Source of the DNA: Escherichia phage vB_Eco_SLUR75
Sequence record: LR025197.1
Direction: 5' to 3' (one strand)
Length of the DNA: 59,880 bases
Shown here piece by piece: positions 128 through 30,823 of this stretch. The notes below the pieces were generated by a model. The model was not told the origin of the DNA and searched no databases. It saw nothing but the letters and a program-made list of their open reading frames with translations. Positions within the stretch are counted from its first letter, which is position 1. Each line of letters starts with the position of its first letter. The translations under genes and the position numbers were made by a program.

Positions 128-489
128 AGGCGCACAGCGTTGCGCACAGCTCGCACAGCGCACACAGACCCACGCAGGCCCAGCCGCGCGACCCGACCCA
201 TCCTTTTCCAGGTACTTGGATCGCTGGGGCGTGCCTTATCCATCCTGATAGTAAGTCCTTGCCTAAATCTCACCTGTCACATTCCTATCCACCTACATCC
301 ATGACCCCCCACCTACCTTCTTTTTGAATATATTGCGCTCATCCTTTCTAAATATATGGATTTTGGTAGTAAATTCTGAGTCGTCAACGTATAATTCGTC
401 TTGTAGCTGCTCCATAGCTATCATCTTTAAGCGGATGCAACCAATTTCTATCAGTTCACACCTGTTTTTAGAGCATCGAGGAGGTATTT

Positions 490-1841: not shown

Positions 1842-2321
1842 ATGGAAGTTACTGAAGCTGCTAAACGCATGGTAAAATTCTATGTCGGTTCTGATGCACC
1901 TTTAATTCGCGCTTTTGGTCAGGAACTTTATGTTTTCCAGGGCGATCGAGAGGAGGCTGAAGAAATTGCTCAGGCAATCCTCGATATGCAAGCAAAAGCG
2001 GATCGTGCGGAAGCCCTTGAAGCCGAATGGCGTGCTCAGGAAGAACGTGCCGAAAATGCTGAAACTAACCTTGTCGACATGCGTGCTGCTGAGCACGCTC
2101 TATCTGATTCTTATATTCGTTTGCGTCAAATTGTTGGTGCAATGAATCCGCCTGGTGTGAGCAGCGAAGAGGTGTGGGCGCATACCGAGAAGAAGGCTCA
2201 AGAGTTGCGTGATCGCTGCGAAGCTCTGGAAGCTATAGCAAAGGACTTCTTGCGTCGTAATAAATATGGTCCTTTGTTCTATCGTGATTTGTATAACCGT
2301 TTTAAGGAGATTGTGAAATGA
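1842..2321 (+). CDS. Hypothetical protein, acidic coiled-coil (159 aa)
   Basis: ATG at M5 of the track ORF (track start 1830 is GTG), preceded by GGTGGAG. Confidence 0.5.
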   Translation: MEVTEAAKRMVKFYVGSDAPLIRAFGQELYVFQGDREEAEEIAQAILDMQAKADRAEALEAEWRAQEERAENAETNLVDMRAAEHALSDSYIRLRQIVGAMNPPGVSSEEVWAHTEKKAQELRDRCEALEAIAKDFLRRNKYGPLFYRDLYNRFKEIVK

Positions 2322-2587
2322 TTACTGCTCAAGAAGCTCGTGAATTAAGCGATAAGCTGGATATTAGCGAAGATATTGAATTTATCAGTGACAGCATTCG
2401 CGTAGCTGCTACAAAGGGATACAATAAAGTATCACTGGTAACCAAATACGGCGCTGTTGGCAATCCTGACACTCAAGACCCGACCACTATGAAGATTGCT
2501 AAATGGTTAGCTGATTCTGGTTTTACGGTGTTATATTATCCTTCAATGGACCAACGTGATAACGAGCGTACTGAGGTAGCATGGTGA
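2318..2587 (+). CDS. Hypothetical protein (89 aa)
   Basis: ATGA overlap with the upstream stop (translational coupling). Confidence 0.5.
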   Translation: MITAQEARELSDKLDISEDIEFISDSIRVAATKGYNKVSLVTKYGAVGNPDTQDPTTMKIAKWLADSGFTVLYYPSMDQRDNERTEVAW

Positions 2588-2654
2588 TTGAAGAAAATAT
2601 CAAATATTGGAAAGGCTTTATTGACGAAATGTTGAAACCATTGGAGAAGAAATA

Positions 2655-3047
2655 ATGCTATTAGTCGTCACCGGAGGTCGAGATTTTAAGCATGTGGAGT
2701 ATATTTATGCTCAATTGGATAAGCTGCATATGCAAAGAAGGATAACCACACTTCGCCACGGTGACGCTGACGGTGTTGACCGCATTTGCGCACAGTGGGC
2801 AGAGCGCAACGGTATTAAGACAGAAGCGTTCCCTGCCCCGTGGGACAATCTTTCCTTACCAAATACCAAGATACGGTATAACGCCAAGGGTGCTTATAAT
2901 GCACAAGCTGGCGCATACCGTAACCAATTAATGCTGAATACTGATCCTAAACCAGATCACGCTATTGTGTTTCCTGGCGGAGCTGGTACTATGGATATGT
3001 ACAGACGGATTAAAGCATCCGGTATTCCTTATACTTTAGCGGAGTAA
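2655..3047 (+). CDS. SLOG/LOG-like Rossmann-fold protein (130 aa)
   Basis: VVTGGRD near N-terminus, HGDADGVD, and VFPGGAGTMD resembling the LOG-family PGGxGT motif. Confidence 0.4.
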   Translation: MLLVVTGGRDFKHVEYIYAQLDKLHMQRRITTLRHGDADGVDRICAQWAERNGIKTEAFPAPWDNLSLPNTKIRYNAKGAYNAQAGAYRNQLMLNTDPKPDHAIVFPGGAGTMDMYRRIKASGIPYTLAE

Positions 3048-3050
3048 ATA

Positions 3051-3521
3051 ATGGCTGACGTTAAAACTATTGTTGATGCAATGGACGAGTCCAAAGACTG
3101 CCAACTGAAGAAGTCGTTTGAAGTAAAACAGGTTACAGAGACTCAGTTGGTCTGTAATTTTGCGCGTTATTGTGGACTGGGGCGCGGGAAAGACTGGAAC
3201 GGGCTTATTGTTATGCCCACATCGCAGATTCTCGTTTACGTCCGCAATATTGTAGAAGATCTTTTGCGTCTTCAAATAGATATTGGTGACGTAGAAATTA
3301 ACATGACTGCGAGCTCTACCATTGTGGTTAAATGGCAGTCGGGCGAGACACTGCGTTTGGAAGCGTGCCATTGTGCTAAGAGCCTACACCACCTGCGCGG
3401 TTGTCATTACCAGTTCGTTGGGTTTGTACATCCGCAAGGGTTAAGCGAGCGTACGGCGCTTGTAGCGCGTTTGCTGCTGCGTCCTTATAATAACGAGCCG
3501 GAAGTTATATACGAGGCATAA
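3051..3521 (+). CDS. Hypothetical protein (156 aa)
   Basis: ORF packed directly after the upstream gene; no recognisable motif. Confidence 0.5.
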   Translation: MADVKTIVDAMDESKDCQLKKSFEVKQVTETQLVCNFARYCGLGRGKDWNGLIVMPTSQILVYVRNIVEDLLRLQIDIGDVEINMTASSTIVVKWQSGETLRLEACHCAKSLHHLRGCHYQFVGFVHPQGLSERTALVARLLLRPYNNEPEVIYEA

Positions 3522-21204: not shown

Positions 21205-21613
21205 GTTGCCGGGCTGGCAGACACGTTTATTAACCACAGTAAAGGAGTTGTCATCGACTCCTTTTTCTTGGGGTGAAAATGATTGCTGCACCTTCGCGGC
21301 TAAATGTGTTGATGCGCAATACGGCACAAATATCTACGAACAAGTTGCTGGAAAATATAGTACCGAGCTTGGAAGTAAAAAGTTCACTATTGAAAGAGTT
21401 GGAACCGCTTACCTTCCATTGTTATTGGATACTTACCTCAGCGAACGAGTTGACAAGAACTATGCGCAAAGAGGCGATGTGGTTACATTTGAGGGAGCAT
21501 TGGGCTTAACTGCTGGCATATTATGGACTGGATATGTATGGGCTATGGGTCCGAACGGTGTGGAAACATTCCCGCTTAATAAGATCAAAATTACGGATAT
21601 TTGGAGGGTCTAA
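21179..21613 (+). CDS. Tail assembly protein with NlpC/P60-like domain, lambda gpK C-terminus-like (144 aa)
   Basis: ATG at M51 of track ORF with RBS GGGGGAG; ENDCCTFAAKC resembles the Cys motif of the lambda K NlpC/P60 domain. Confidence 0.5.
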   Translation: MRQGSPMSKLPGWQTRLLTTVKELSSTPFSWGENDCCTFAAKCVDAQYGTNIYEQVAGKYSTELGSKKFTIERVGTAYLPLLLDTYLSERVDKNYAQRGDVVTFEGALGLTAGILWTGYVWAMGPNGVETFPLNKIKITDIWRV

Positions 21614-24600
21614 TGCCACCAGCAATAATTGGAGCAGCGATAGCTTTAGGTGCGTCAGCTGCTGCTGCGGCTAGTATTATTTCGGCTACTACCGCTCTCG
21701 TTATCGGTATTGCTGCAACCGCGGCAGGTGCTCTTTTGACTAAGACACCAAATATGAACTTTGATGCTTACAAGGGTCAGCAAGAGCGTAAACAGGTTCT
21801 GCGTGCAGCTACAGCGTCACGTTCTGTTGTATATGGCACGACCGTAGCGTCCGGACTATTAGCATTTGCGGAGGAAGAAGCTGGAGATCAAGATGAAGGT
21901 GAATGGATGCATCTTGTTGTCGTTCTTGCCAGTCATAAATTGGAAGGTATTGAAACGATTTGGTTGGGCGATGACGGAATTGATTGGTTTGGTGAAAACG
22001 CTACTTGGGAGTTCCATAACGACCGTCAGACTGTTGACCCATTCATGTTAAAACATTGTCCTTCCTGGAAGGAGGATATGATTGGCAAGGGTATTGCATG
22101 GCTACGTTTAAGCTTAAAGTTTGATGCTGAAAAATTCCCATCCGGTTTGCCAAACGTCAAGGTGTTGAAAAAGGGACGTAGAATTTATGACCCACGTTCC
22201 GGTCAAACTGTCTTTAGCGATAACGCTGCTCTTGTTATTCTTGATTATTTCCGCACGTATTTAAAGCGCAAGGACGAGAATATTAACTGGGACCAATTCA
22301 AGGAAGCTGCTAACATCTGCGATGAGTTTGTTACTAACGCAGATAACACTACGGAAAGACGCTATCGCATTAACGGGGAGTTTGAAGTGGACGAAGCACC
22401 TGCCAAAATCCTTGATGCTATGCTTGAAGCTTGCGGTGGGGAACTAACCTATATTGGCGGTAAGCATGGTCTGTTAGTTGGTGCTTATTACGGCCCAGCC
22501 ACCATGACTTTGGATGAAAGCTGCATTGCTGGGGATATTAAAATAATCCCTGAGACATCTTATAAAGAGCGTACCAATACCATTACAGGTACATTCGTCG
22601 ACCCGAAGCAAACATACGCTGAAGCAGATTTTCCTCCAGTTGTGGTTAAGGAATGGGTGGAAAAAGATGGCGGTGAAATAACGCAAGACATGGATTTCCG
22701 CTTTGTTACAAGTGAATATCAAGCTCAACGTCTTGCTAATATTATTTTACGTCGTAAGCGTGTTGGTCGAACAATTGAAGTTCCGTGTAACATGAAGGGG
22801 TATAAATTCCGCCCAGGCATGTATGTCAACGTAACCATTTCAAACATCGGAATGAAAAACGTTGAGATGCGCGTTACTAAATGGTCATTCGATCCTAAAG
22901 GTGGGATTAATCTTGTCCTTCGTCAAGACTTCCTGGAAATGTGGGACGACGCTATTGGTAAACCAATGGAGCGCCCGGATCTGGTAGACCTTCCGTCTGG
23001 TGCTATTGCTCAACCGCAAAACCTTCAGTATCAGGTATTGCAGATTAGCGATGTTGTGCAGGGTGTTTTAACGTGGAGCAATATTGGGCAGGTAGCATAT
23101 AACCGCGTAGCCGTGCGACAGGGAGGTACAACGGTTTGGACCGCACAAGTCCCTGGCCAAAACGTTCGCGTTACTGGGTTGCTGCGGGGCGCGTATACAG
23201 CGCATGTTCAAGCGGTAGCTTATAGCGGGGCAGTATCGCCGGAAGCATATCTGGAATTCAATATTCAAGCACCACCTCCGCCAACTTCTGTTGAAGTGCA
23301 ACAGGGTTACTTTGCTATAAGTTTGATCCCAAAATCTGCGGATATTGCAAACGTTAGCACGCAGTATGATTTCTGGACTTCCGGTGAAACAAGATTGTCT
23401 TCCGTGTCTACAGACATTGTAGAACGCGAAGCAACTCGTAAAGGTATGGGTACAACTTGGACGTCGGAAGGGTTGAAGAATGACCACACTTATTACTGGT
23501 ATGTCCGCACCATTAACGCTTTCGGATCATCTGCATTTGTAGAAGTAGCTGCATTGTGCTTTACAACAGCTACAGATTTGATGCCACAAATTGATTCTGA
23601 ATTCAAGAAGACGGAGACTTATAAAGAGCTCACTACTGAAATCACAGGTGTTAAAGATGGAGTTACTCAGCTTAGCCAAACTGTAGTGCAAACTGAAAAG
23701 CGTTTAAGTCAAAGCGTTAGCAATGTTCAACAAAGCGTTATCACTTTGGATGGTGTTGTTCAGGATCATGGCGTTACCATTAATAAACAAGGACAGCTCA
23801 TCGATGCACAGGGTAAGTTGATTGACACTCAAGGTAAGACTATTGAAACGGTTAGCGCGACCGTGCAGGAGACAAGTAAAGCAGTTGTAGATCTGGAAGG
23901 TAATGTTAACGCTCAATGGGGTGCTAAAGTACAGGTAGATAGTAAAGGGCAAAAATACGTTGCTGGTATGCAGTTAGGTATGGAAGGGTCCGGTGGAGCT
24001 GTTCAGTCTTACTTCATGGTAAGTGCTAACAACTTTGCTATCTATAACCCGACAAATAGCGTAGCAGAACTAGCATTTGCTGTTAAGAACGGTCAAGTGT
24101 TCATGAAGGCTGCGTTTATTGAAAATGGTACTATTGACAGCGCTAAAATTTCAAATCAAATTCAGTCAACAAACTACGCAAACAATAGCGCGGGTTGGAT
24201 GATTAACAAGAATGGTAGCGCTCAGTTTAACAACGTAACGATAAGAGGTACTGTATACGCTAGCAACGGATCTTTCACAGGCACAGTGAACGCAACAAGC
24301 GGTAAATTCAAGGGTACTGTGGAAGCTACCAGTTTTGTGGGTGATGTTGCGAATATGTGTGTCATTGCTGAGTCTGCAATACCAAACACACAAACTACAA
24401 GTTCAAGAACCTGGACAAAAACTTTCAAAGACTCATCTGGTTCAACATTATCTAAAGACTTTGTGTTGCTATTAAGTTATAGTTTAACCGCATATACATC
24501 AAATCAGGCGAGTCGTATAATTGTGACTGCTAACATAGGGGGGACATCAATTACAAGGAGGATTGAGCGAGCTGCCAATGGACCTGCGATGGATGTAACC

Positions 24601-24735
24601 ATACCTTTAGCAGTGAAAGGAAAGACAGCGTCGAGCGTAACAATAAGCGTTAAGGAGGAGTATACGAACGTCTATGGGAGCTACTTGCGCCCATCTGTAA
24701 TATTAATGACTCGCGGAACTGGTAGTTGGTCGTAA
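21613..24735 (+). CDS. Tail tip / central fiber protein, lambda gpJ-like (1040 aa)
   Basis: C-terminal segments align by eye with lambda J ([22 protein letters not shown] vs [41 protein letters not shown] vs YYFYIRSVNTVGKSAFVEA). ATG at M5 of track ORF (track start is TTG). Confidence 0.8.
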   Translation: [1040 protein letters not shown]

Positions 24736-24742
24736 TAAATAA

Positions 24743-24770
24743 TTAACCCCTCAAACGAGGGGTTAATTTT
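24743..24770. terminator. Bidirectional terminator hairpin
   Basis: AACCCCTC-aaac-GAGGGGTT with A-run upstream and T-run downstream; between convergent J-like and lipoprotein genes. Confidence 0.6.
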
Positions 24771-25003
24771 CAATAATCAATCACACAGTTTGAAGGTGAG
24801 CCAATTCGTCGGTATTCGTGATCAATTTCATGACACCATTGCCCAGTCATTGGAAGCTTTTCGGTATCATAAATTAAAGAACCGTTACCATCGCGATCCA
24901 AAGGTTTTGGAACGACGCCGGAATTAGGTTTACCAGTATTTAAACCATTACCACATGCGGTAAGGGACAAACATAATGCCAGCATAATTAGAGCGTGTTT
25001 CAT
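24770..25003 (-). CDS. Small lipoprotein, candidate superinfection-exclusion protein (77 aa)
   Basis: Signal peptide with lipobox LSLTAC|G; sole opposite-strand gene in the tail module, between the J-like and tail fiber genes. Confidence 0.55.
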   Translation of the reverse strand: MKHALIMLALCLSLTACGNGLNTGKPNSGVVPKPLDRDGNGSLIYDTEKLPMTGQWCHEIDHEYRRIGSPSNCVIDY

Positions 25004-25085
25004 CGGGACTCCTTTGTGTTGTTGTCAAGGTTCAATTTTAATATACTTGTTGTGTTGAGTAAGTCAAATAAATGTGGGAGATATT

Positions 25086-28000
25086 ATGGCAACTCGTTTA
25101 CGTGGTACTTTAGTTGATGGTTTGAATAAGCCTATTATCAACGCTACAGTTGCGCTTTTAGCTAAAGGAAACAGTCTTACCGTATTATCCGGCAGCGAAG
25201 CTATCTTTAAAACAAGTGCAACCGGAACTTATGATATTACAGTCCAGACAGGTTATTACAAGGTTATTATCGGTCCACAGGGCGTAGAGCCATATAAAGC
25301 TGGTGAAATTGCTATTTACGCGGATAGTAAAGAAGGTACGCTGAATAACTATTTAACTACATGGGCACCGGAAGAGCTAACTCCGGAAGTTATTACTCAG
25401 GTAAAAGATTTGGTTGCACAAGCTGAGACAGCTAAGAACGCTTCATCCACGTCTGCTACTAAATCCGAACAGGAGCGAGTTAAAGCAGAAGCTGCTGCTA
25501 AAAAAGCGGAAGACACTGCTAATGGTATGAAAGCCTCTATTGGCTTAACTACTGCCCCAAGACATGTTGCAAATATTACAGTAGAACCTACAGCATTCTT
25601 AGGCTTCATACGAATTGTACGATCTACCACAGTCGGTTATCCAGATATAGCTTCATCAGAAAACGTATTGGCTGGTTTTATTTCTGCTATGGACGGAACC
25701 CCTGGATATGTCGGGGTATTTGTTGGTGACTTCACCGGAACTGTATACACTTATCGTTGGACTAAGAATGTTGGCGCGGTATGGTGGAAACAAGTTAACT
25801 ACTCTACTGTCAACAGATATACCCAGCTTAACGCAGAAACTAATTTTACAAACCAATTGGGTAACGCCAAACTTCTTATTGACAATAATAAAGTTTGGGG
25901 TGCTTATGATAACGACAATAAACGCTATATACCCCTTGCAATAGCTCAGGGTGGTACTGGCGCGGTAAATGTTAATGATGCTTTGGAAAACTTTGGGTTA
26001 GGTCGTAACTCCGCGCCACGTTTCAAACATCTTGATCTGGACAATGCATCAAATTCTACACAAGCAGCTTCTGGAATTCTAAACGGCTACCTCCGTGATT
26101 CTAGCGGTGTGCAAAGAACTAAGCATAGATTATATTCAGAAATTAAAAGCGATGGGAAAGCGTGGTTAACCATGCAGATCTATTCTGATGAATCTACGCA
26201 GAAGACTTTAGGTTATAACATTGACGGCGATTTCCAAATTGTACGTAATTTTATCGGGCAGTCCTTACAATTATCGGATTTAACCACAACTCATAAAAAT
26301 CTACAGATTGATAGATTTAAGCAGTTGTCCGCTGGAACAAGGGTCTACGGAGGTCCAGCCGATGAGCGATATTTTGAAGTTCATACCGGGGCCTGGGGTG
26401 TTTATAACGTAACAGAAAAGAAATGGATACCTTTAGCCATATCACAAGGTGGGACGGGAGCTGTTACAGTTGCGGACGCCAAGAAGAACCTTTTAATCCC
26501 GGACGGAGGTCTTGATTCGGCTACCCGTGTGGATAAACCCGCTGGAGCGGAAGATGCTAAGTATTATCCAATCATTATTAGCCAACCTAGCGGGTATGAT
26601 GGCACGTACCTAACAGAAATTGAAATGAGCACTCCCAGCAGAAGTGCTGCACAAAGTCCTAACTCTAACATCTTAAGAGCTTGGATTCGAAGCGCTGGAT
26701 GGAGCGATAAAGGTACTGTTGGCTTTGGGAATTTCTTTGCTTATGATAGTAAAGAGGTTGCAATTTTATGTATACGTGGCACATCTAGAGGTCAATATCC
26801 TCATAATGCTGTTTACGTAAAGGGCGATGCTTTCCCTGTTTATATTAGGAAGACTGTTGGATCCACAATTACAGTTCCCACTTCTGACTGGTCTGCAGAT
26901 CCAAATGCGTCAGATAAGTGTGTTTATAAATGGGGCATCACAGGCGATTTAGATGGTATTGGTGATGAATATGGGTGTCGAAATATACTAAACTTTGTCA
27001 AAGGTTTGAACGGATTTTATTGTAACGACTATTTCCGTGATGCTGGAGGGAATGCTTATCTTAAGGATGGGATGAATTATGGAGGTGATATAAAATTACA
27101 ACTCCGTAAATTGGAAATAAACGGTAATCTTACCGCAGGGAACGCTATAACTGCTTTCGGTCCTACTGTAGCAAATAATACATTTGTATCACAGTTAACA
27201 AATGCGGATTCTAGTCAAGCATTGCATCAAAGCGAGTTTAGAGCTGGGGAAAGCGGTGGGCAAATTGTTGTTCGGGATATGTCAGCAGTAGCCAATCATA
27301 AATTCTTTAACTTTAATCTAGACGGAAGCTTCAGTCCGCCAAACGGATTATTGTCTTCTACTGGTGTGGATTGGAACAGTCAAATTAATACCGTCAATAA
27401 GTTCTATGGAATTGCCGGACAAGTTAACTCAGCAGAAAACAATGTTGTTTACGGGGGCATTCACGTAGGTTTTAGCGGTAATTATGCATTTCAACTAGCT
27501 GGTAGAAATAACAAAGCAAGTTTTCGTACATTTGAAGCAGGCACACCTGGACCTTGGATGCGTCTTATTACTGATCAGTATGCAGACTTCAAAGTACCAA
27601 TTTTTGCTAACAAGAATGGTGAAGCTATAACCATTAAATCGACAGTAGATGACAACTCTGAATCTGGATATATCGCTGGGAGGAATAACGCTAATACCCG
27701 TTTGTGGTATATAGGGAAGTCCGGACCTCAAGAAACTGTGGTTATCCGTAATGATATGAATGGAAACCAAATACTCTTAAGGGACGGTGCAGGCGATATA
27801 AGCTTGGATACAAAAGACGGGAACAAAGTTGTATTTGCAAAAGCTTCCAACTTTAGACTTGTTAATAGTAATGGAAAATATACAAGGTTAGTAACATCAG
27901 GAAGTTCAACTCATGCAATTAGCATGGACAACTGGGGTACAAGCGCAAGACCTACTGTGTTCGAATGTAAGTATGAAGACTATAGCACTTCTGCTAACGT

Positions 28001-28472
28001 TGGTTGGATATACTACGGTCAGGTAAATACAGATGGAAGCCGAACATTTCAGGTAAACGGAACTGTCGGTTGTACTAGTGTTGTTCAAAGCTCAGACCGA
28101 GATCTTAAAGACAACATTAAGACTATTGCAGATGCAACTAAAGCATTGCGTAAAATGAATGGCTACACATATACTCTCAAGGAAGATGGTTTACCCTATG
28201 CTGGTGTAATCGCTCAAGAAGTTATGGAAGCTCTACCTGAAGCGGTTAGCAGTTTCACAAAGCATGAGTATATGGAAGGCCAAGATGGAGAAGGTAATGA
28301 TACAAGATATGATCTTGGAAAACGTTATCTTAATGTAGACTACTCCGCGGTAACTGGTCTTCTGGTTCAGGTTTGTCGTGAAGCAGATGACCGCATTACA
28401 AAACTTGAAACTGAAGTTGAGGAACTCAAAAAATTAGTTGCAACACTTGTTAATAAAGAACCACTACCATAA
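25086..28472 (+). CDS. Tail fiber with C-terminal intramolecular chaperone, peptidase S74-like (1128 aa)
   Basis: C-terminal SDRDLKDNIKTI...GYTYTLKEDG...YAGVIAQEV matches the self-cleaving chaperone motif; internal duplicated IPLAI(A/S)QGGTGAV motif. ATG at M5 of track ORF (track start 25074 is GTG). Confidence 0.8.
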   Translation: MATRLRGTLVDGLNKPIINATVALLAKGNSLTVLSGSEAIFKTSATGTYDITVQTGYYKVIIGPQGVEPYKAGEIAIYADSKEGTLNNYLTTWAPEELTPEVITQVKDLVAQAETAKNASSTSATKSEQERVKAEAAAKKAEDTANGMKASIGLTTAPRHVANITVEPTAFLGFIRIVRSTTVGYPDIASSENVLAGFISAMDGTPGYVGVFVGDFTGTVYTYRWTKNVGAVWWKQVNYSTVNRYTQLNAETNFTNQLGNAKLLIDNNKVWGAYDNDNKRYIPLAIAQGGTGAVNVNDALENFGLGRNSAPRFKHLDLDNASNSTQAASGILNGYLRDSSGVQRTKHRLYSEIKSDGKAWLTMQIYSDESTQKTLGYNIDGDFQIVRNFIGQSLQLSDLTTTHKNLQIDRFKQLSAGTRVYGGPADERYFEVHTGAWGVYNVTEKKWIPLAISQGGTGAVTVADAKKNLLIPDGGLDSATRVDKPAGAEDAKYYPIIISQPSGYDGTYLTEIEMSTPSRSAAQSPNSNILRAWIRSAGWSDKGTVGFGNFFAYDSKEVAILCIRGTSRGQYPHNAVYVKGDAFPVYIRKTVGSTITVPTSDWSADPNASDKCVYKWGITGDLDGIGDEYGCRNILNFVKGLNGFYCNDYFRDAGGNAYLKDGMNYGGDIKLQLRKLEINGNLTAGNAITAFGPTVANNTFVSQLTNADSSQALHQSEFRAGESGGQIVVRDMSAVANHKFFNFNLDGSFSPPNGLLSSTGVDWNSQINTVNKFYGIAGQVNSAENNVVYGGIHVGFSGNYAFQLAGRNNKASFRTFEAGTPGPWMRLITDQYADFKVPIFANKNGEAITIKSTVDDNSESGYIAGRNNANTRLWYIGKSGPQETVVIRNDMNGNQILLRDGAGDISLDTKDGNKVVFAKASNFRLVNSNGKYTRLVTSGSSTHAISMDNWGTSARPTVFECKYEDYSTSANVGWIYYGQVNTDGSRTFQVNGTVGCTSVVQSSDRDLKDNIKTIADATKALRKMNGYTYTLKEDGLPYAGVIAQEVMEALPEAVSSFTKHEYMEGQDGEGNDTRYDLGKRYLNVDYSAVTGLLVQVCREADDRITKLETEVEELKKLVATLVNKEPLP

Positions 28473-28488
28473 CCACATCTAACTTCCA

Positions 28489-28514
28489 CAGCGCGTCTTC
28501 GGGCGCGCTTTTTA
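28489..28514 (+). terminator. Rho-independent terminator after tail fiber gene
   Basis: AGCGCG-tcttcggg-CGCGCT hairpin followed by TTTTT. Confidence 0.6.
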
Positions 28515-28643
28515 TTGGCTGTCAATCCCAATTTACAAAATCTTTACATTTGGATCATTGTAAAAAGCATGTTAAGGGCTATGCTTTACTTCGTAACCAG
28601 TTGGTTACATCCGCTTAACAAATCCATATATGGAGATTTTCCT

Positions 28644-29351
28644 ATGTCTGACATGACTCTTTTACCTACTAATCTCGGTGGCGACGGTTTCGGTGGTGAA
28701 GCTGGTGCGGCTGGTATCGGTGGCGCGATCGGTGGCTTAATTGGTTCCTGGATCGGTAATGGTTGGGGCGGCAATGGTGGTTGGGGTGGTCGCGGTAACT
28801 TCGCTGGTCCGGTGGAAGTGCAAGCTTCTGTTGACACCAACGCAATTCTGCAAGCTATCAACAACGGTACTCTTCAGACCATTCAGGGGCAGAACGGTAC
28901 TAACCTGACTGTTGAGCGCTCCGCTGCTTCTACCTATAACGGTATTACTCAGCAGAACACTCAAAACCTGCTGGCTTCCGTTCAGGGCTTTGCTGGTCTG
29001 AACACGCAGATCCAGGGCGGCACCAGCCAAGTGCTCGCGGCTCTGTGTAACAACGAAGCAGCTAACATTACCCGCTCCTTCCAGGCTCAGTTAGAAGCTC
29101 AGAAGTGTTGCTGCGAAACCAACCTGAACATCGAGCGTCAAGCAGAAGCTACTCGTGCTCTCCTGCGCGATCAGCACGCACAAGCGCAAGCTGTTCTGAT
29201 CTGTGACCTGAAGTCCCAGTTGCAGGAAGCTCGCTTTGCAAACTCTCAGTTGGCGCAGACGGCTGGCCTTACCTGTAAAATCAATCAGGTTGAGCAGTTA
29301 GTTAACTTTAAACTGCCAACTCCTCCGACTCCTCCGACTGGCTGCTGCTAA
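28644..29351 (+). CDS. Glycine-rich protein with C-terminal Cys motifs (235 aa)
   Basis: ATG at M44 of track ORF with RBS TGGAG; N-terminal GGDGFGGEAGAAGIGGAIGGLIGSWIGNGWGGNGGWGG, Gln/Asn/Thr-rich middle, C-terminal CCCE...PTPPTPPTGCC. Confidence 0.5.
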   Translation: MSDMTLLPTNLGGDGFGGEAGAAGIGGAIGGLIGSWIGNGWGGNGGWGGRGNFAGPVEVQASVDTNAILQAINNGTLQTIQGQNGTNLTVERSAASTYNGITQQNTQNLLASVQGFAGLNTQIQGGTSQVLAALCNNEAANITRSFQAQLEAQKCCCETNLNIERQAEATRALLRDQHAQAQAVLICDLKSQLQEARFANSQLAQTAGLTCKINQVEQLVNFKLPTPPTPPTGCC

Positions 29352-29372
29352 TCGTTGAAGTGTGGTTAAACT

Positions 29373-29408
29373 AAAGCGCCTTTCGCTCCTCCGCTTGGGG
29401 CGCTTTTA
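29373..29408 (+). terminator. Putative terminator hairpin
   Basis: AAGCGCC ... GGCGCTT stem with a long loop, followed by TTTT. Confidence 0.4.
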
Positions 29409-29422
29409 ACAGAGGTAATATC

Positions 29423-29791
29423 ATGAGCCACATTAAAATCGCAACGATGGGAATACCACGGGTTAAATTGCCTAAGGTTGCTTTACCTCGCATTAGCGTA
29501 GGTGAGCACCACCATGAACACGAGAAAGAGGAATATAAACATGCTCACTCTTATGCTCGAGATCATGAACATATGGCAGCTATGTCAAATGTTCTTGACC
29601 GGATGGAAGAACCTCCGCATACGTGGGCGGCGTACCACGACAAGCCCGGCGGTATGATGTCCATTGTTGAAATGGAATACCGCGAATTAATGGAGTGTAA
29701 GAAAGAAGGCGACCGCGCAGGGATCATGAAAGAGTTGACTGATCTTGCCGCAGCTTGTACTTGCGCTCTTCAAAAAATGAAAGATATGTAA
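29423..29791 (+). CDS. His-rich protein, possible MazG-like NTP pyrophosphohydrolase (122 aa)
   Basis: GEHHHEHEKEEYKHAHSYARDHEH metal-binding-like stretch; EMEYRELME...MKELTDL resembles the ExxE...ExxD pattern of MazG/HisE proteins. Confidence 0.3.
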   Translation: MSHIKIATMGIPRVKLPKVALPRISVGEHHHEHEKEEYKHAHSYARDHEHMAAMSNVLDRMEEPPHTWAAYHDKPGGMMSIVEMEYRELMECKKEGDRAGIMKELTDLAAACTCALQKMKDM

Positions 29792-29806
29792 GAATAGGAA
29801 GCCGAC

Positions 29807-30337
29807 ATGCAAAACGTAAACGCAGGAATGGGCGTAACCCAGTTCAACGGGATGAAACCGAAAAACTCCATCAACATGGGCGGTGTTGATTGGACGTTAC
29901 GTCGGGACGCTACCGATTCAACTACCATGTTCCCACACCAGAAGGTGAGCTGGCTTAATGCTGGCTGTGAACCTATGGGTGATGGAAGGGTTCATTACTG
30001 TTGGATTATGGGAGTGATACCGCCTACGCCGGGCACTATCGAACGACCCGTGAATGTGATGTATGTCGGCTTCCACCAGTTCAAGATCACAATTGCTCCA
30101 AACTCCATTAGTCAGTCAGATCTTGATCGTATGCATGTTTACGTCAGCGATGGTACAGACTTCGCAGGGGATTTTATTAGTAAGTTTCTTGGTATGCAAC
30201 CAGAGCAGCCTGTAGAAGCACGCGAGCATATTAGCCCGTGGCCACCCATGATTGATCAGGAAGTGCTGCAACCAAAGACCGCTCAAACGGTCCCTCAGAA
30301 ACCGGAGCAGAAGGTGAAACCAAATGACGAAGAATGA
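29807..30337 (+). CDS. Hypothetical protein (176 aa)
   Basis: RBS-like GGAAG upstream; no recognisable motif. Confidence 0.5.
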   Translation: MQNVNAGMGVTQFNGMKPKNSINMGGVDWTLRRDATDSTTMFPHQKVSWLNAGCEPMGDGRVHYCWIMGVIPPTPGTIERPVNVMYVGFHQFKITIAPNSISQSDLDRMHVYVSDGTDFAGDFISKFLGMQPEQPVEAREHISPWPPMIDQEVLQPKTAQTVPQKPEQKVKPNDEE

Positions 30338-30608
30338 AGGTATTGATAAAGTCGTTGAAGGGCTTTCTATTCGTGCTCATGTTATAGCAGACGAAGGTCA
30401 TGATCAACTCACAATTATGAAATCTGCATTCAGCGATTTTAAGTCTCTTGGAAACTTAAGCGGGTTAATGACTGTGGTGTCGACCGGAAAATTAACCCAG
30501 CAGCAAATCAGTCTGGCTCAGCGTATTGCTGTTAAAGTTATTGCGGTACTTGGGATGATTGAAGCTGAAAAGCCCAGTTCCAAGCAGGATAACGAAAGCG
30601 ACCTTTAA
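30324..30608 (+). CDS. Hypothetical protein (94 aa)
   Basis: Overlaps upstream gene end. Confidence 0.45.
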   Translation: MTKNEGIDKVVEGLSIRAHVIADEGHDQLTIMKSAFSDFKSLGNLSGLMTVVSTGKLTQQQISLAQRIAVKVIAVLGMIEAEKPSSKQDNESDL

Positions 30609-30619
30609 GGAGGTCTACT

Positions 30620-30823
30620 ATGTGTGGTAATACTAACCGTTGCTGTCTAGGCAGTCCTGCAACACAAGCAGGTATACTTCAGGGGCAATTAGCTCAAGCA
30701 GCGTGTAATTGCAAAACTTTTCAACCAGTAGCGCCAACTCCTGTGTTTGTGAATGCTTTTGCACCGCCTGTTTTCAATACTTTTGGCGTATACCCATACG
30801 GTGCTTTCTTTCGTATATTCTAA
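30620..30823 (+). CDS. Small Cys-rich protein (67 aa)
   Basis: RBS AAGGAGG; CCLGS...CNCK cysteines; last gene of the forward arm. Confidence 0.45.
   Translation: MCGNTNRCCLGSPATQAGILQGQLAQAACNCKTFQPVAPTPVFVNAFAPPVFNTFGVYPYGAFFRIF

Follow-up and report, generated by a model that had tools for sequence, protein, structure and literature searches.

A mosaic lateral tail fibre with a predicted C-terminal S74 chaperone and two apparently ancient shaft repeats in Escherichia phage vB_Eco_SLUR75

The open reading frame that starts at position 25086 of the window (by which we mean the whole analysed stretch of 59,880 nucleotides of vB_Eco_SLUR75, record LR025197.1) is a genuine gene, and its product is the side tail fibre already deposited for this coliphage, a Seuratvirus. 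We consider it, with a probability of about 0.85, to be a trimeric lateral fibre with an S74 chaperone at its C-terminus and ancient repeat units in its shaft, the GGTGA core of these units acting as a junction and the gene as a whole being a mosaic cassette. From the N- to the C-terminus the trimer would consist of an anchor, a helical stretch, a two-unit shaft (aa 241–477), a distal part and the chaperone (Table 1). The architecture of this fibre gene is already known; the original prediction, which was made from the sequence, read it correctly and the feature is an ordinary one. Only the GGTGA junction repeat, which is uncatalogued, is mildly new.

Table 1. Features of the lateral tail fibre gene and its borders (positions in the window).
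Feature	Position	Strand	Evidence
Shine-Dalgarno-like GGGAGA	25076..25081	+	read from sequence; 4 nt 5' of ATG 25086
Lateral (side) tail fibre gene	25086..28472	+	ORF, Pfam and PHROG matches, exact match VAY27923.1
N-terminal virion-attachment domain, lambda Stf / prophage tail fibre type, aa 1-130	25086..25475	+	PF08400
Repeat unit 1, aa 241-307; core IPLAIAQGGTGAV aa 282-294 (nt 25929-25967)	25806..26006	+	HMM domain E 2e-28
Beta-rich domain of ~100 aa between the units, aa 308-406	26007..26303	+	AF2 strands, pLDDT 65-78
Repeat unit 2, aa 407-477; core IPLAISQGGTGAV aa 448-460 (nt 26427-26465)	26304..26516	+	HMM domain E 3e-29
Distal shaft and presumed receptor-binding region, aa 478-1002	26517..28091	+	PHROG tail-fibre and long-tail-fibre-distal families
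Peptidase S74 intramolecular chaperone (predicted), aa 1003-1128, 14.1 kDa	28092..28469	+	PF13884, invariant residues, profile matches
Catalytic Ser1003 (predicted)	28092-28094	+	S74 alignment
Catalytic Lys1008 (predicted)	28107-28109	+	S74 alignment
Terminator-like hairpin, 8 bp, 6 GC pairs, then TTTTATT	28490..28509	+	18 nt past stop codon

The reading frame begins with ATG and comprises 1128 codons plus stop. An in-frame GTG at 25074 is not likely to be the start and is not favoured over the ATG. The translated product is identical to VAY27923.1, which is deposited for Escherichia phage vB_Eco_SLUR75 as a side tail fiber protein, and the fibre annotated in the phage WildeMaa likewise has 1128 aa. 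Upstream lies a J-like central fibre gene (21601–24735) followed by a lipoprotein gene, the same order as in WildeMaa. On the 3' side the terminator-like hairpin is followed by genes of unknown function. We rejected a branched fibre of the DT57C kind, as in place of a second fibre gene the hairpin and these genes were found downstream.

The N-terminal domain matches PF08400 (phage_tail_N) with 82.4 bits against a threshold of 26.6 (E 3.8e-23). The first ~90 residues also align with a 94-aa chain named 'Tail fiber protein' of PDB 9e7m (E 6.5e-14), which we take to be lambda Stf. The domain is conserved among Seuratvirus fibres. Its score above the threshold and the position of the gene after a J-type central fibre gene assign it to the lambda Stf type, and it would anchor the fibre to the tail tip. 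A helical stretch is found at aa ~100–150. Tail-fibre families of PHROG match along the entire protein; a search of NCBIfam with the fibre protein returned no family. Together, the PF08400 match, the PHROG families over the full length and the identical deposited protein bear out the prediction that the gene encodes a tail fibre.

The C-terminus had been predicted to be a self-cleaving S74 module, and the three strings on which this was based are all present, SDRDLKDNIKTI at aa 1003, GYTYTLKEDG at aa 1026 and AGVIAQEV at aa 1039. PF13884, whose gathering score is 22, matches aa 1003–1054 on positions 1–57 of its 58 model positions with 51.4 bits (E 1.3e-13). In an alignment of 14 diverse C-termini, S1003, D1004 and K1008 are invariant, homologues carrying SDR(D/R)LK or an S-x4-K variant. 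The alignment with S74 chaperone domains that had been proposed as a check gave matches of a C-terminal profile to DT57C LtfA (E 7.5e-16), MYRF (1e-13), S16 gp37 (PDB 6F45; 1.5e-11, and 6e-5 with the single sequence) and GA-1 gp12 (4e-5). T5 pb1 (4UW8) and K1F endosialidase (3GW6) were not matched by this profile at E<=1. Ser1003 aligns with the first residue of the GA-1 gp12 chaperone chain and with the cleavage-site serine of S16 gp37. The bit score, the invariant Ser1003 and Lys1008 and the matches to solved S74 domains thus uphold the assignment of the module and support, at the level of sequence, the view that the C-terminal 126 aa are an intramolecular chaperone. These residues extend to the stop codon, a size that fits a C-terminal fragment of about 110–150 aa, and coiled-coil matches were obtained at profile positions ~120–160.

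An AF2 model of aa 828–1128 was calculated for a monomer of a trimeric protein and reached a mean pLDDT of 59, the chaperone residues lying between 29 and 48. In this model the last 126 aa run through short helices and a long beta hairpin to a terminal helix of 38 residues, an order of elements in line with the T5 pb1 chaperone as described (PMC4690869). A Foldseek search with this low-confidence model gave T4 gp34 as top hit (E 7e-4) and the endosialidase chaperone 3GW6 (E 0.012), with TM values of about 0.1. Hits of this strength agree weakly with the fold of 3GW6 and 4UW8, a helical core with a long beta-hairpin 'tentacle', but do not count as evidence for it.

The scissile bond is predicted to be Ser1002-Ser1003 (VVQS^SDRDLK). 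Cleavage occurs at T1263^S1264 in T5 pb1 (PMC4690869) and at DLNVS^SDRRIKK in S16 gp37 (PMC7917993). We propose that the chaperone trimerises via its terminal coiled coil, templates the folding of the distal fibre and then removes itself by a cut of this bond catalysed by Ser1003 and Lys1008. This would leave a mature chain of 108 kDa with its tip exposed. Alternatively, the S74 domain could stay uncleaved in this fibre and be retained on the mature tip, for instance as a docking or stabilising element. In T5 pb1 Arg1250 and Asp1239 act as folding sensor (PMC4690869), and these residues lack a confident counterpart here because the alignment contains no invariant Arg just upstream of the site. 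However, the serine and the lysine at +5 are intact and invariant, the characterised relatives nearest in sequence, S16 gp37 and the Ltf proteins of DT57C, have a known or predicted cleavage site at the aligned serine (PMC7917993, PMC4728585), and the uncleaved form of the T5 fibre does not compete for the receptor (PMC4690869). We therefore regard retention of the domain as improbable.

The original prediction further stated that a motif occurs twice about 175 residues apart and that this reflects an internal duplication. The motif IPLAI[AS]QGGTGAV does occur twice, at aa 282 and aa 448, but the measured spacing is 166 residues. Each motif belongs to a repeat unit of ~65–70 aa with the core consensus PLxIxQGGTGAxTxxDA(K/R)xNL near its end, and in the unit alignment the columns for W, G, L, GGTG, A and N do not vary. 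Self-BLASTP of the fibre protein reported the identity match only, so that detection of the repeat needed Smith-Waterman alignment and an HMM. The silence of BLASTP and the Gly-rich core could be taken to mean that the motif is a chance or low-complexity match, or else the repeat could be a recent duplication in vB_Eco_SLUR75. Aligning aa 241–312 with aa 407–481 gave a Smith-Waterman score of 123, which was reached by 0 of 500 shuffles (mean 33, sd 5.5, max 57), and the HMM recovers both copies at E about 1e-28. The copies share only 34% aa identity, no repeat was found between them at the DNA level, their synonymous sites differ, and the two-copy layout is common to many other phages. Both a recent duplication and a chance match are refuted by the shuffles, the HMM and the absent DNA repeat, and we give them a negligible probability. 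The claimed duplication therefore stands as far as two homologous copies are concerned; it is neither recent nor specific to vB_Eco_SLUR75.

In the AF2 model covering the repeat region, again a low-confidence monomer of a trimeric protein (mean pLDDT 61), unit 1 is built from a short helix, beta strands, the GGTGA loop and a helix (pLDDT 70–84). Neither Pfam nor NCBIfam has a model over this region, and a literature search for the motif strings returned nothing relevant, although the motif may still be described somewhere. The unit profile matches SU10 gp12 (7Z47) and DT57C LtfA (8HQZ); of the former, the structure was built for the N-terminal residues 1–90 only (PMC9509320), of the latter for the N-terminus only (PMC10713586). 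With the R1 pyocin fibre (6CL5) the profile gave E 0.15, a weak match and a lead only (PMC6116203).

Every one of 120 homologues examined contains one to three units. At E<=1e-3 the profile is found in at least 4,683 protein cluster representatives, with up to 21 stretches per protein, and the GGTGA core recurs with periods of 25, 40, 62–67 or 166 aa. From this distribution the unit belongs to the general building blocks of lateral tail fibres, and its two copies in vB_Eco_SLUR75 are, as judged from sequence, ancient. The beta-rich domain together with unit 2 forms a cassette of 166 aa which is missing from single-unit fibres; these homologues align only to aa 1–303 and aa 407–1128, and the segment between the units is covered by only about 38 of the 120 homologues.

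The fibre gene is a mosaic cassette within a conserved backbone. The sequences on either side share 97.5% and 99.3% identity with slur01/Greed, where the fibre gene itself is only 21–29% covered. The GGTGA core coincides with a recombination breakpoint: in a comparison with OddieOddie, 87.4% of nucleotides agree as far as aa 293 and 54.6% beyond this point. Pairwise breakpoints fall within 10 aa of a GGTG motif in 12.3% of cases versus 3.9% for random positions, an enrichment that is not a probability because the pairs are non-independent. A breakpoint beside an invariant motif can also arise from alignments that always recover there. Further breakpoints of the vB_Eco_SLUR75 fibre lie near aa 737 and aa 808 in the distal region and cluster at aa 1000–1002, the predicted S74 cleavage site.

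We considered two alternatives for the origin of the two units. First, a single tandem duplication within the gene of a distant ancestral fibre could have given rise to both, the copies diverging and the ~100-aa domain being inserted later, with the motif having no special role in recombination. The two copies are homologous, relatives with head-to-tail tandem units at 62–67 aa spacing exist, and the spacing of 166 aa is common to Seuratvirus homologues and to homologues on 105–115-kb contigs, which suggests that the arrangement is old. Second, the units could have been brought together by module shuffling. The part of unit 2 before the motif (48 aa before GGTG) is 90% identical to unit 1 of one homologue (P0023), whereas the half after the motif is only 21% identical. 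Similarly, unit 1 is 96% identical to the sole unit of another homologue (P0021) before the motif and 20% after it. These halves with discordant nearest relatives, as well as the sharp nucleotide breakpoint at the motif, argue against the ancestral duplication, which we regard as unlikely. The present two-copy arrangement looks shuffled from modules and not locally duplicated in vB_Eco_SLUR75.

We propose that the invariant GGTGA core serves as an in-frame junction where phages exchange fibre segments. Being invariant and situated between domains, the motif would allow proximal and distal segments to be swapped by recombination while the trimer is kept. Exchange partners could come from unrelated groups, namely Seuratvirus, T5-like, rV5-like, T1-like and kuravirus-like phages as well as prophages, and the two copies in the vB_Eco_SLUR75 fibre would represent two such junctions. 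The wider proposal that the ~25-aa core PLxIxxGGTGAxTxxDA(R/K)xNL is an uncatalogued shaft repeat and a universal in-frame splice junction is a tentative one, and we hold it with less than even confidence.

The distal region would form the end of the mature fibre. Its ligand is most likely a surface glycan (O-antigen or LPS), which would serve as reversible first receptor; the biology of such lateral fibres has been described (PMC8594841), as has that of T5 pb1 (PMC4690869). Over nt 2173–3158 of the gene, 78.6% identity is shared with the long tail fibre gene of ESCO30, a phage of 112 kb.

The closest known counterpart is the lateral fibre of WildeMaa (Bas23, QXV85762.1), with 94% aa and 88.8% nt identity, identical Pfam domains and the same position after the J-like and lipoprotein genes. 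The fibres do not differ in anything substantial; the sequence differences are spread out, and identity is lowest near aa 960–1000. Downstream of the fibre, the two phages carry different genes. The T5-family fibres (T5 pb1, 4UW7/4UW8; DT57C LtfA, 8HQZ chain d; ESCO30) are also single long polypeptides with a C-terminal S74 domain, removed at a Ser with Lys at +5 (PMC4690869, PMC4728585), the cleavage being a prediction in our case. They contain GGTGA units, some of them with the 166-aa cassette, and the ESCO30 long tail fibre has 53% aa identity over 72% of the protein. In contrast, homologues on 105–115-kb contigs lack PF08400 and can be aligned only from about aa 125, the N-terminus of vB_Eco_SLUR75 being of the lambda Stf and not of the pb1/LtfA type. 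In DT57C the fibre anchor threads into the LtfC collar (PMC10713586). PDB searches with the protein and with the C-terminal profile gave no match, at the level of sequence, to the bullet-shaped tip of pb1 (4UW7) or to the pb1 chaperone.

The S74 domain of S16 gp37 is among the closest characterised ones, VS^SDRRIKK aligning with QS^SDRDLKD (PMC7917993). S16, however, is a T4-like myovirus in which cleavage bares a docking site for the separate adhesin gp38; directly after the fibre gene of vB_Eco_SLUR75 a gp38-like gene was sought, and only the terminator-like hairpin was found. E. coli prophage proteins named 'prophage tail fiber N-terminal domain and S74 family endopeptidase-containing protein' (NCBI) combine PF08400 and PF13884, contain one or two GGTGA units and show about 40% identity over 63% of the protein. 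They differ in being mostly single-unit proteins without the 166-aa cassette, in a longer region before the unit and in a different terminal coiled coil. Lambda Stf resembles the fibre in its N-terminal ~90 aa and in the location of its gene downstream of J, but it uses the separate assembly chaperone Tfa and not a C-terminal S74 domain.

The combination of a PF08400-type N-terminus with S74 is common enough to have become an NCBI product name for the E. coli prophage homologues. For vB_Eco_SLUR75, the Ser1002-Ser1003 bond is a testable maturation site, at which a precursor of 122.5 kDa is predicted to be converted to a mature chain of 108.4 kDa (computed masses). The module boundaries near aa 105, 293, 407, 737, 808 and 1002 could be used for host-range engineering, and the GGTGA core would be a natural graft point for fibre segments between phages if its role as a breakpoint is general.

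The fibre protein encoded by the 25086-28472 ORF is already known and annotated; the sole point beyond annotation is its invariant GGTGA core, a repeat that is very common in fibres, is uncatalogued and lies where recombination breakpoints fall. The exact protein has the database entry VAY27923.1 ("side tail fiber protein [Escherichia phage vB_Eco_SLUR75]"), and its identification as a tail fibre is borne out by Pfam PF08400, by PHROG tail-fibre families spanning the full length and by a match of the N-terminus to the solved "Tail fiber protein" chain 9e7m (E 6.5e-14). The window is the genome of a Seuratvirus (Queuovirinae) coliphage. The phages slur01 and Greed share 97.5% identity with positions 1-25000 and 99.3% with 28473-30620, the DNA surrounding the 235-aa ORF downstream of the fibre gene. 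In WildeMaa (Bas23) the J-like, lipoprotein and fibre genes are laid out in the same way, and the orthologue, with 94% of its aa identical, bears the annotation lateral tail fibre protein. The BASEL paper describes the fibre locus as hypervariable and proposes O-antigen glycans as the first, dispensable receptor of these fibres (PMC8594841).

Coordinates of the fibre gene, its parts and its neighbours
Feature	Position	Strand	Remarks
J-like central fibre gene	21601-24735		precedes fibre gene
Terminator-like hairpin	24768-24741		of lipoprotein gene
Small lipoprotein gene	24770-25003	-	77 aa; between J-like and fibre genes; PHROG 12984, E 1e-56
Promoter-like site	25067 to 25040		of lipoprotein gene
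Fibre gene	25086-28472	+	1128 aa; GGGAGA 4 nt 5' of ATG
phage_tail_N (PF08400)	aa 1-130		Pfam, E 3.8e-23
Similarity between copies	aa 241-312, 407-481		about 70 residues
Segment similar to ESCO30	27258-28243		gene nt 2173-3158
Peptidase_S74 (PF13884)	aa 1003-1054		Pfam, 51.4 bits, cut-off 22
Coiled-coil tail	28383-28469		aa ~1100-1128
Terminator-like hairpin	28490-28509		3' of fibre stop codon
235-aa ORF	28644-29351	+	directly 3' of fibre terminator; PHROG 9288 (unknown function)
67-aa ORF	30620-30823	+	Cys-rich (MCGNTNRCCLGSPATQ...)

The lipoprotein gene, which has its own promoter-like and terminator-like sites, probably encodes a lipoprotein of the Llp/Cor kind that blocks a receptor or excludes superinfecting phages. 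Downstream, the product of the 235-aa ORF is rich in Gly at its N-terminus (GGDGFGGEAGAAGIGG...GWGGNGGWGG) and in Q/N in the middle, contains a CCC cluster and has PTPPTPPTGCC as its C-terminus. No Pfam family was found for this ORF or for the 67-aa ORF.

Like T5 pb1 and DT57C LtfA, the fibre is a single long chain; its tip probably binds glycans, as theirs do, and its S74 chaperone is likewise predicted to cleave itself off. Shaft and distal modules are shared with the fibres of T5-size phages, whereas the N-terminus is of the lambda Stf type and differs from that of the pb1 family. Sequence searches of the PDB with the fibre protein and the C-terminal profile found no match to the pb1 tip. 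E. coli prophage proteins about 40% identical to the fibre carry an NCBI product name describing the same architecture.

A self-cleaving S74-type C-terminus had been predicted, and the Pfam score agrees as regards the S74 domain; the strings quoted for it begin at aa 1003, 1026 and 1039. When 14 diverse C-termini were aligned, Ser1003, Asp1004 and Lys1008 proved invariant, as did the G-x-x-A-Q core and several positions further on. Run against solved structures, a profile built from this alignment matched the S74 domains of DT57C LtfA (E 7.5e-16), human MYRF (E 1e-13), phage S16 gp37 (E 1.5e-11) and GA-1 gp12 (E 4e-5). The first residue of the GA-1 chaperone chain is a Ser aligned with the fibre Ser; S16 is cleaved at DLNVS^SDRRIKK (PMC7917993) and T5 pb1 at Thr1263^Ser1264, where Lys1269 acts as base (PMC4690869). 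Alignment puts the predicted cleavage point of the fibre at VVQS(1002)^S(1003)DRDLK, and the cut would leave a mature chain of 108.4 kDa and a fragment of 14.1 kDa. In a low-confidence AF2 model, aa 828-1128 fold into short helices, a beta hairpin of some length and a long helix at the C-terminal end. The best Foldseek matches of this model, to T4 gp34 and to 3GW6, an endosialidase chaperone, are both weak, so that the assignment to S74 rests on sequence. The last ~30 chaperone residues form a lineage-specific coiled-coil tail, which in the alignment tracks phage lineage, not S74 subtype: whatever subtype precedes, homologues on ~60-kb contigs end in ...KLETEVEELKKLVATLVNK.. and those on 105-115-kb contigs in ...ALESEVSDLKKQIADLTLVVNSLLANKAQ. 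Such a conserved 3' end of the gene might provide a downstream recombination anchor for cassette exchange.

The motif IPLAI(A/S)QGGTGAV occurs twice, as originally noted, at aa 282 and aa 448, but the spacing is 166 residues and not about 175. The two copies align with a score of 123, compared with a mean of 33 (sd 5.5, maximum 57) for 500 shuffles. They share 34% protein identity, no repeat between them was found at the DNA level and their synonymous sites differ; the two copies are not a recent duplication. Within the repeat region AF2 reached moderate quality only in unit 1, modelled as a short helix followed by three or four strands, the GGTGA loop and another helix, and no known-fold match was found for the model.

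The two copies were used to build an HMM, which was scanned against the fibre and its 120 best homologues. All 121 proteins contain the unit, 79 of them once, 31 twice and 11 three times; copies in homologues are spaced by 62-67 aa where they stand head to tail and otherwise, as in this fibre, by 166 aa. Single-copy fibres align only with aa 1-303 and aa 407-1128, relative to which this fibre has an extra 166-aa cassette comprising a ~100-aa beta-rich domain and one unit. The homologues P0066 and P0041 carry a different ~100-aa insert between GGTGA units (…DLNTLTGNSLGVYFQ…NYPI…GALIVLK…), replacing the beta domain of aa 308-406, and the inter-unit domain is therefore exchangeable. A search of 1.84 billion proteins with the unit profile (E<=1e-3) matched 4,683 cluster representatives, many of which contain only a ~25-aa core (LPLxIxxGGTGAxTxxxARxNLG); this core is repeated up to about 20 times with periods of 25-30, 40/74 or 62-67 aa. 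Three matched proteins, P0124, P0135 (10 copies, 24-28 aa spacing) and P0234 (2114 aa, 23 GGTG sites), consist largely of the tandem 25-aa core, and no Pfam family was found in them. By tblastn the repeat region was located in 601 phage records, among them those of genomes of about 110 kb (T5-size), 135 kb (rV5-size), 50 kb (T1-size) and 76 kb (phiEco32-size). No Pfam or NCBIfam model was found over the repeat region, and in solved entries with the motif the fibre part bearing it was not built (PMC9509320, PMC10713586). The proposed internal duplication thus stands as regards the two copies; the repeat is, however, an ancient, widespread module and not a local duplication.

The fibre gene has conserved DNA on both sides and is itself a variable cassette, and identity profiles against individual homologues shift abruptly. 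The homologue P0002 shows 95% identity as far as aa ~280, 30-60% from there to aa ~760 and 100% thereafter, and OddieOddie falls from 87.4% nucleotide identity up to codon 293 to 54.6% beyond. ESCO30, a 112-kb phage, reaches about 90% at aa ~840-1040 only; over gene nt 2173-3158 the gene shares 78.6% nt identity with the long tail fibre gene of vB_EcoS_ESCO30, which indicates that the tip region has been exchanged between phages that differ widely in genome size and in family. In comparisons with this fibre, breakpoints cluster near aa 105, 140-154, 230, 292-299, 407, 724-739, 801-819, 1000-1002, 1044-1059 and 1080-1087; notable among these sites are the first GGTGA motif and the predicted S74 cleavage site. 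The nearest relatives of the 48 aa before each motif differ from those of the 40 aa after it: identity drops from 96% to 20% in the homologous fibre P0021 and from 90% to 21% in P0023. When 57 non-redundant fibres were compared in all pairs, 12.3% of breakpoints fell <=10 aa from a GGTG motif versus 3.9% of random positions, an indication only because the pairs are not independent. That the GGTGA core acts generally as a junction for module exchange is a tentative reading, to which we assign a probability of roughly one in three.
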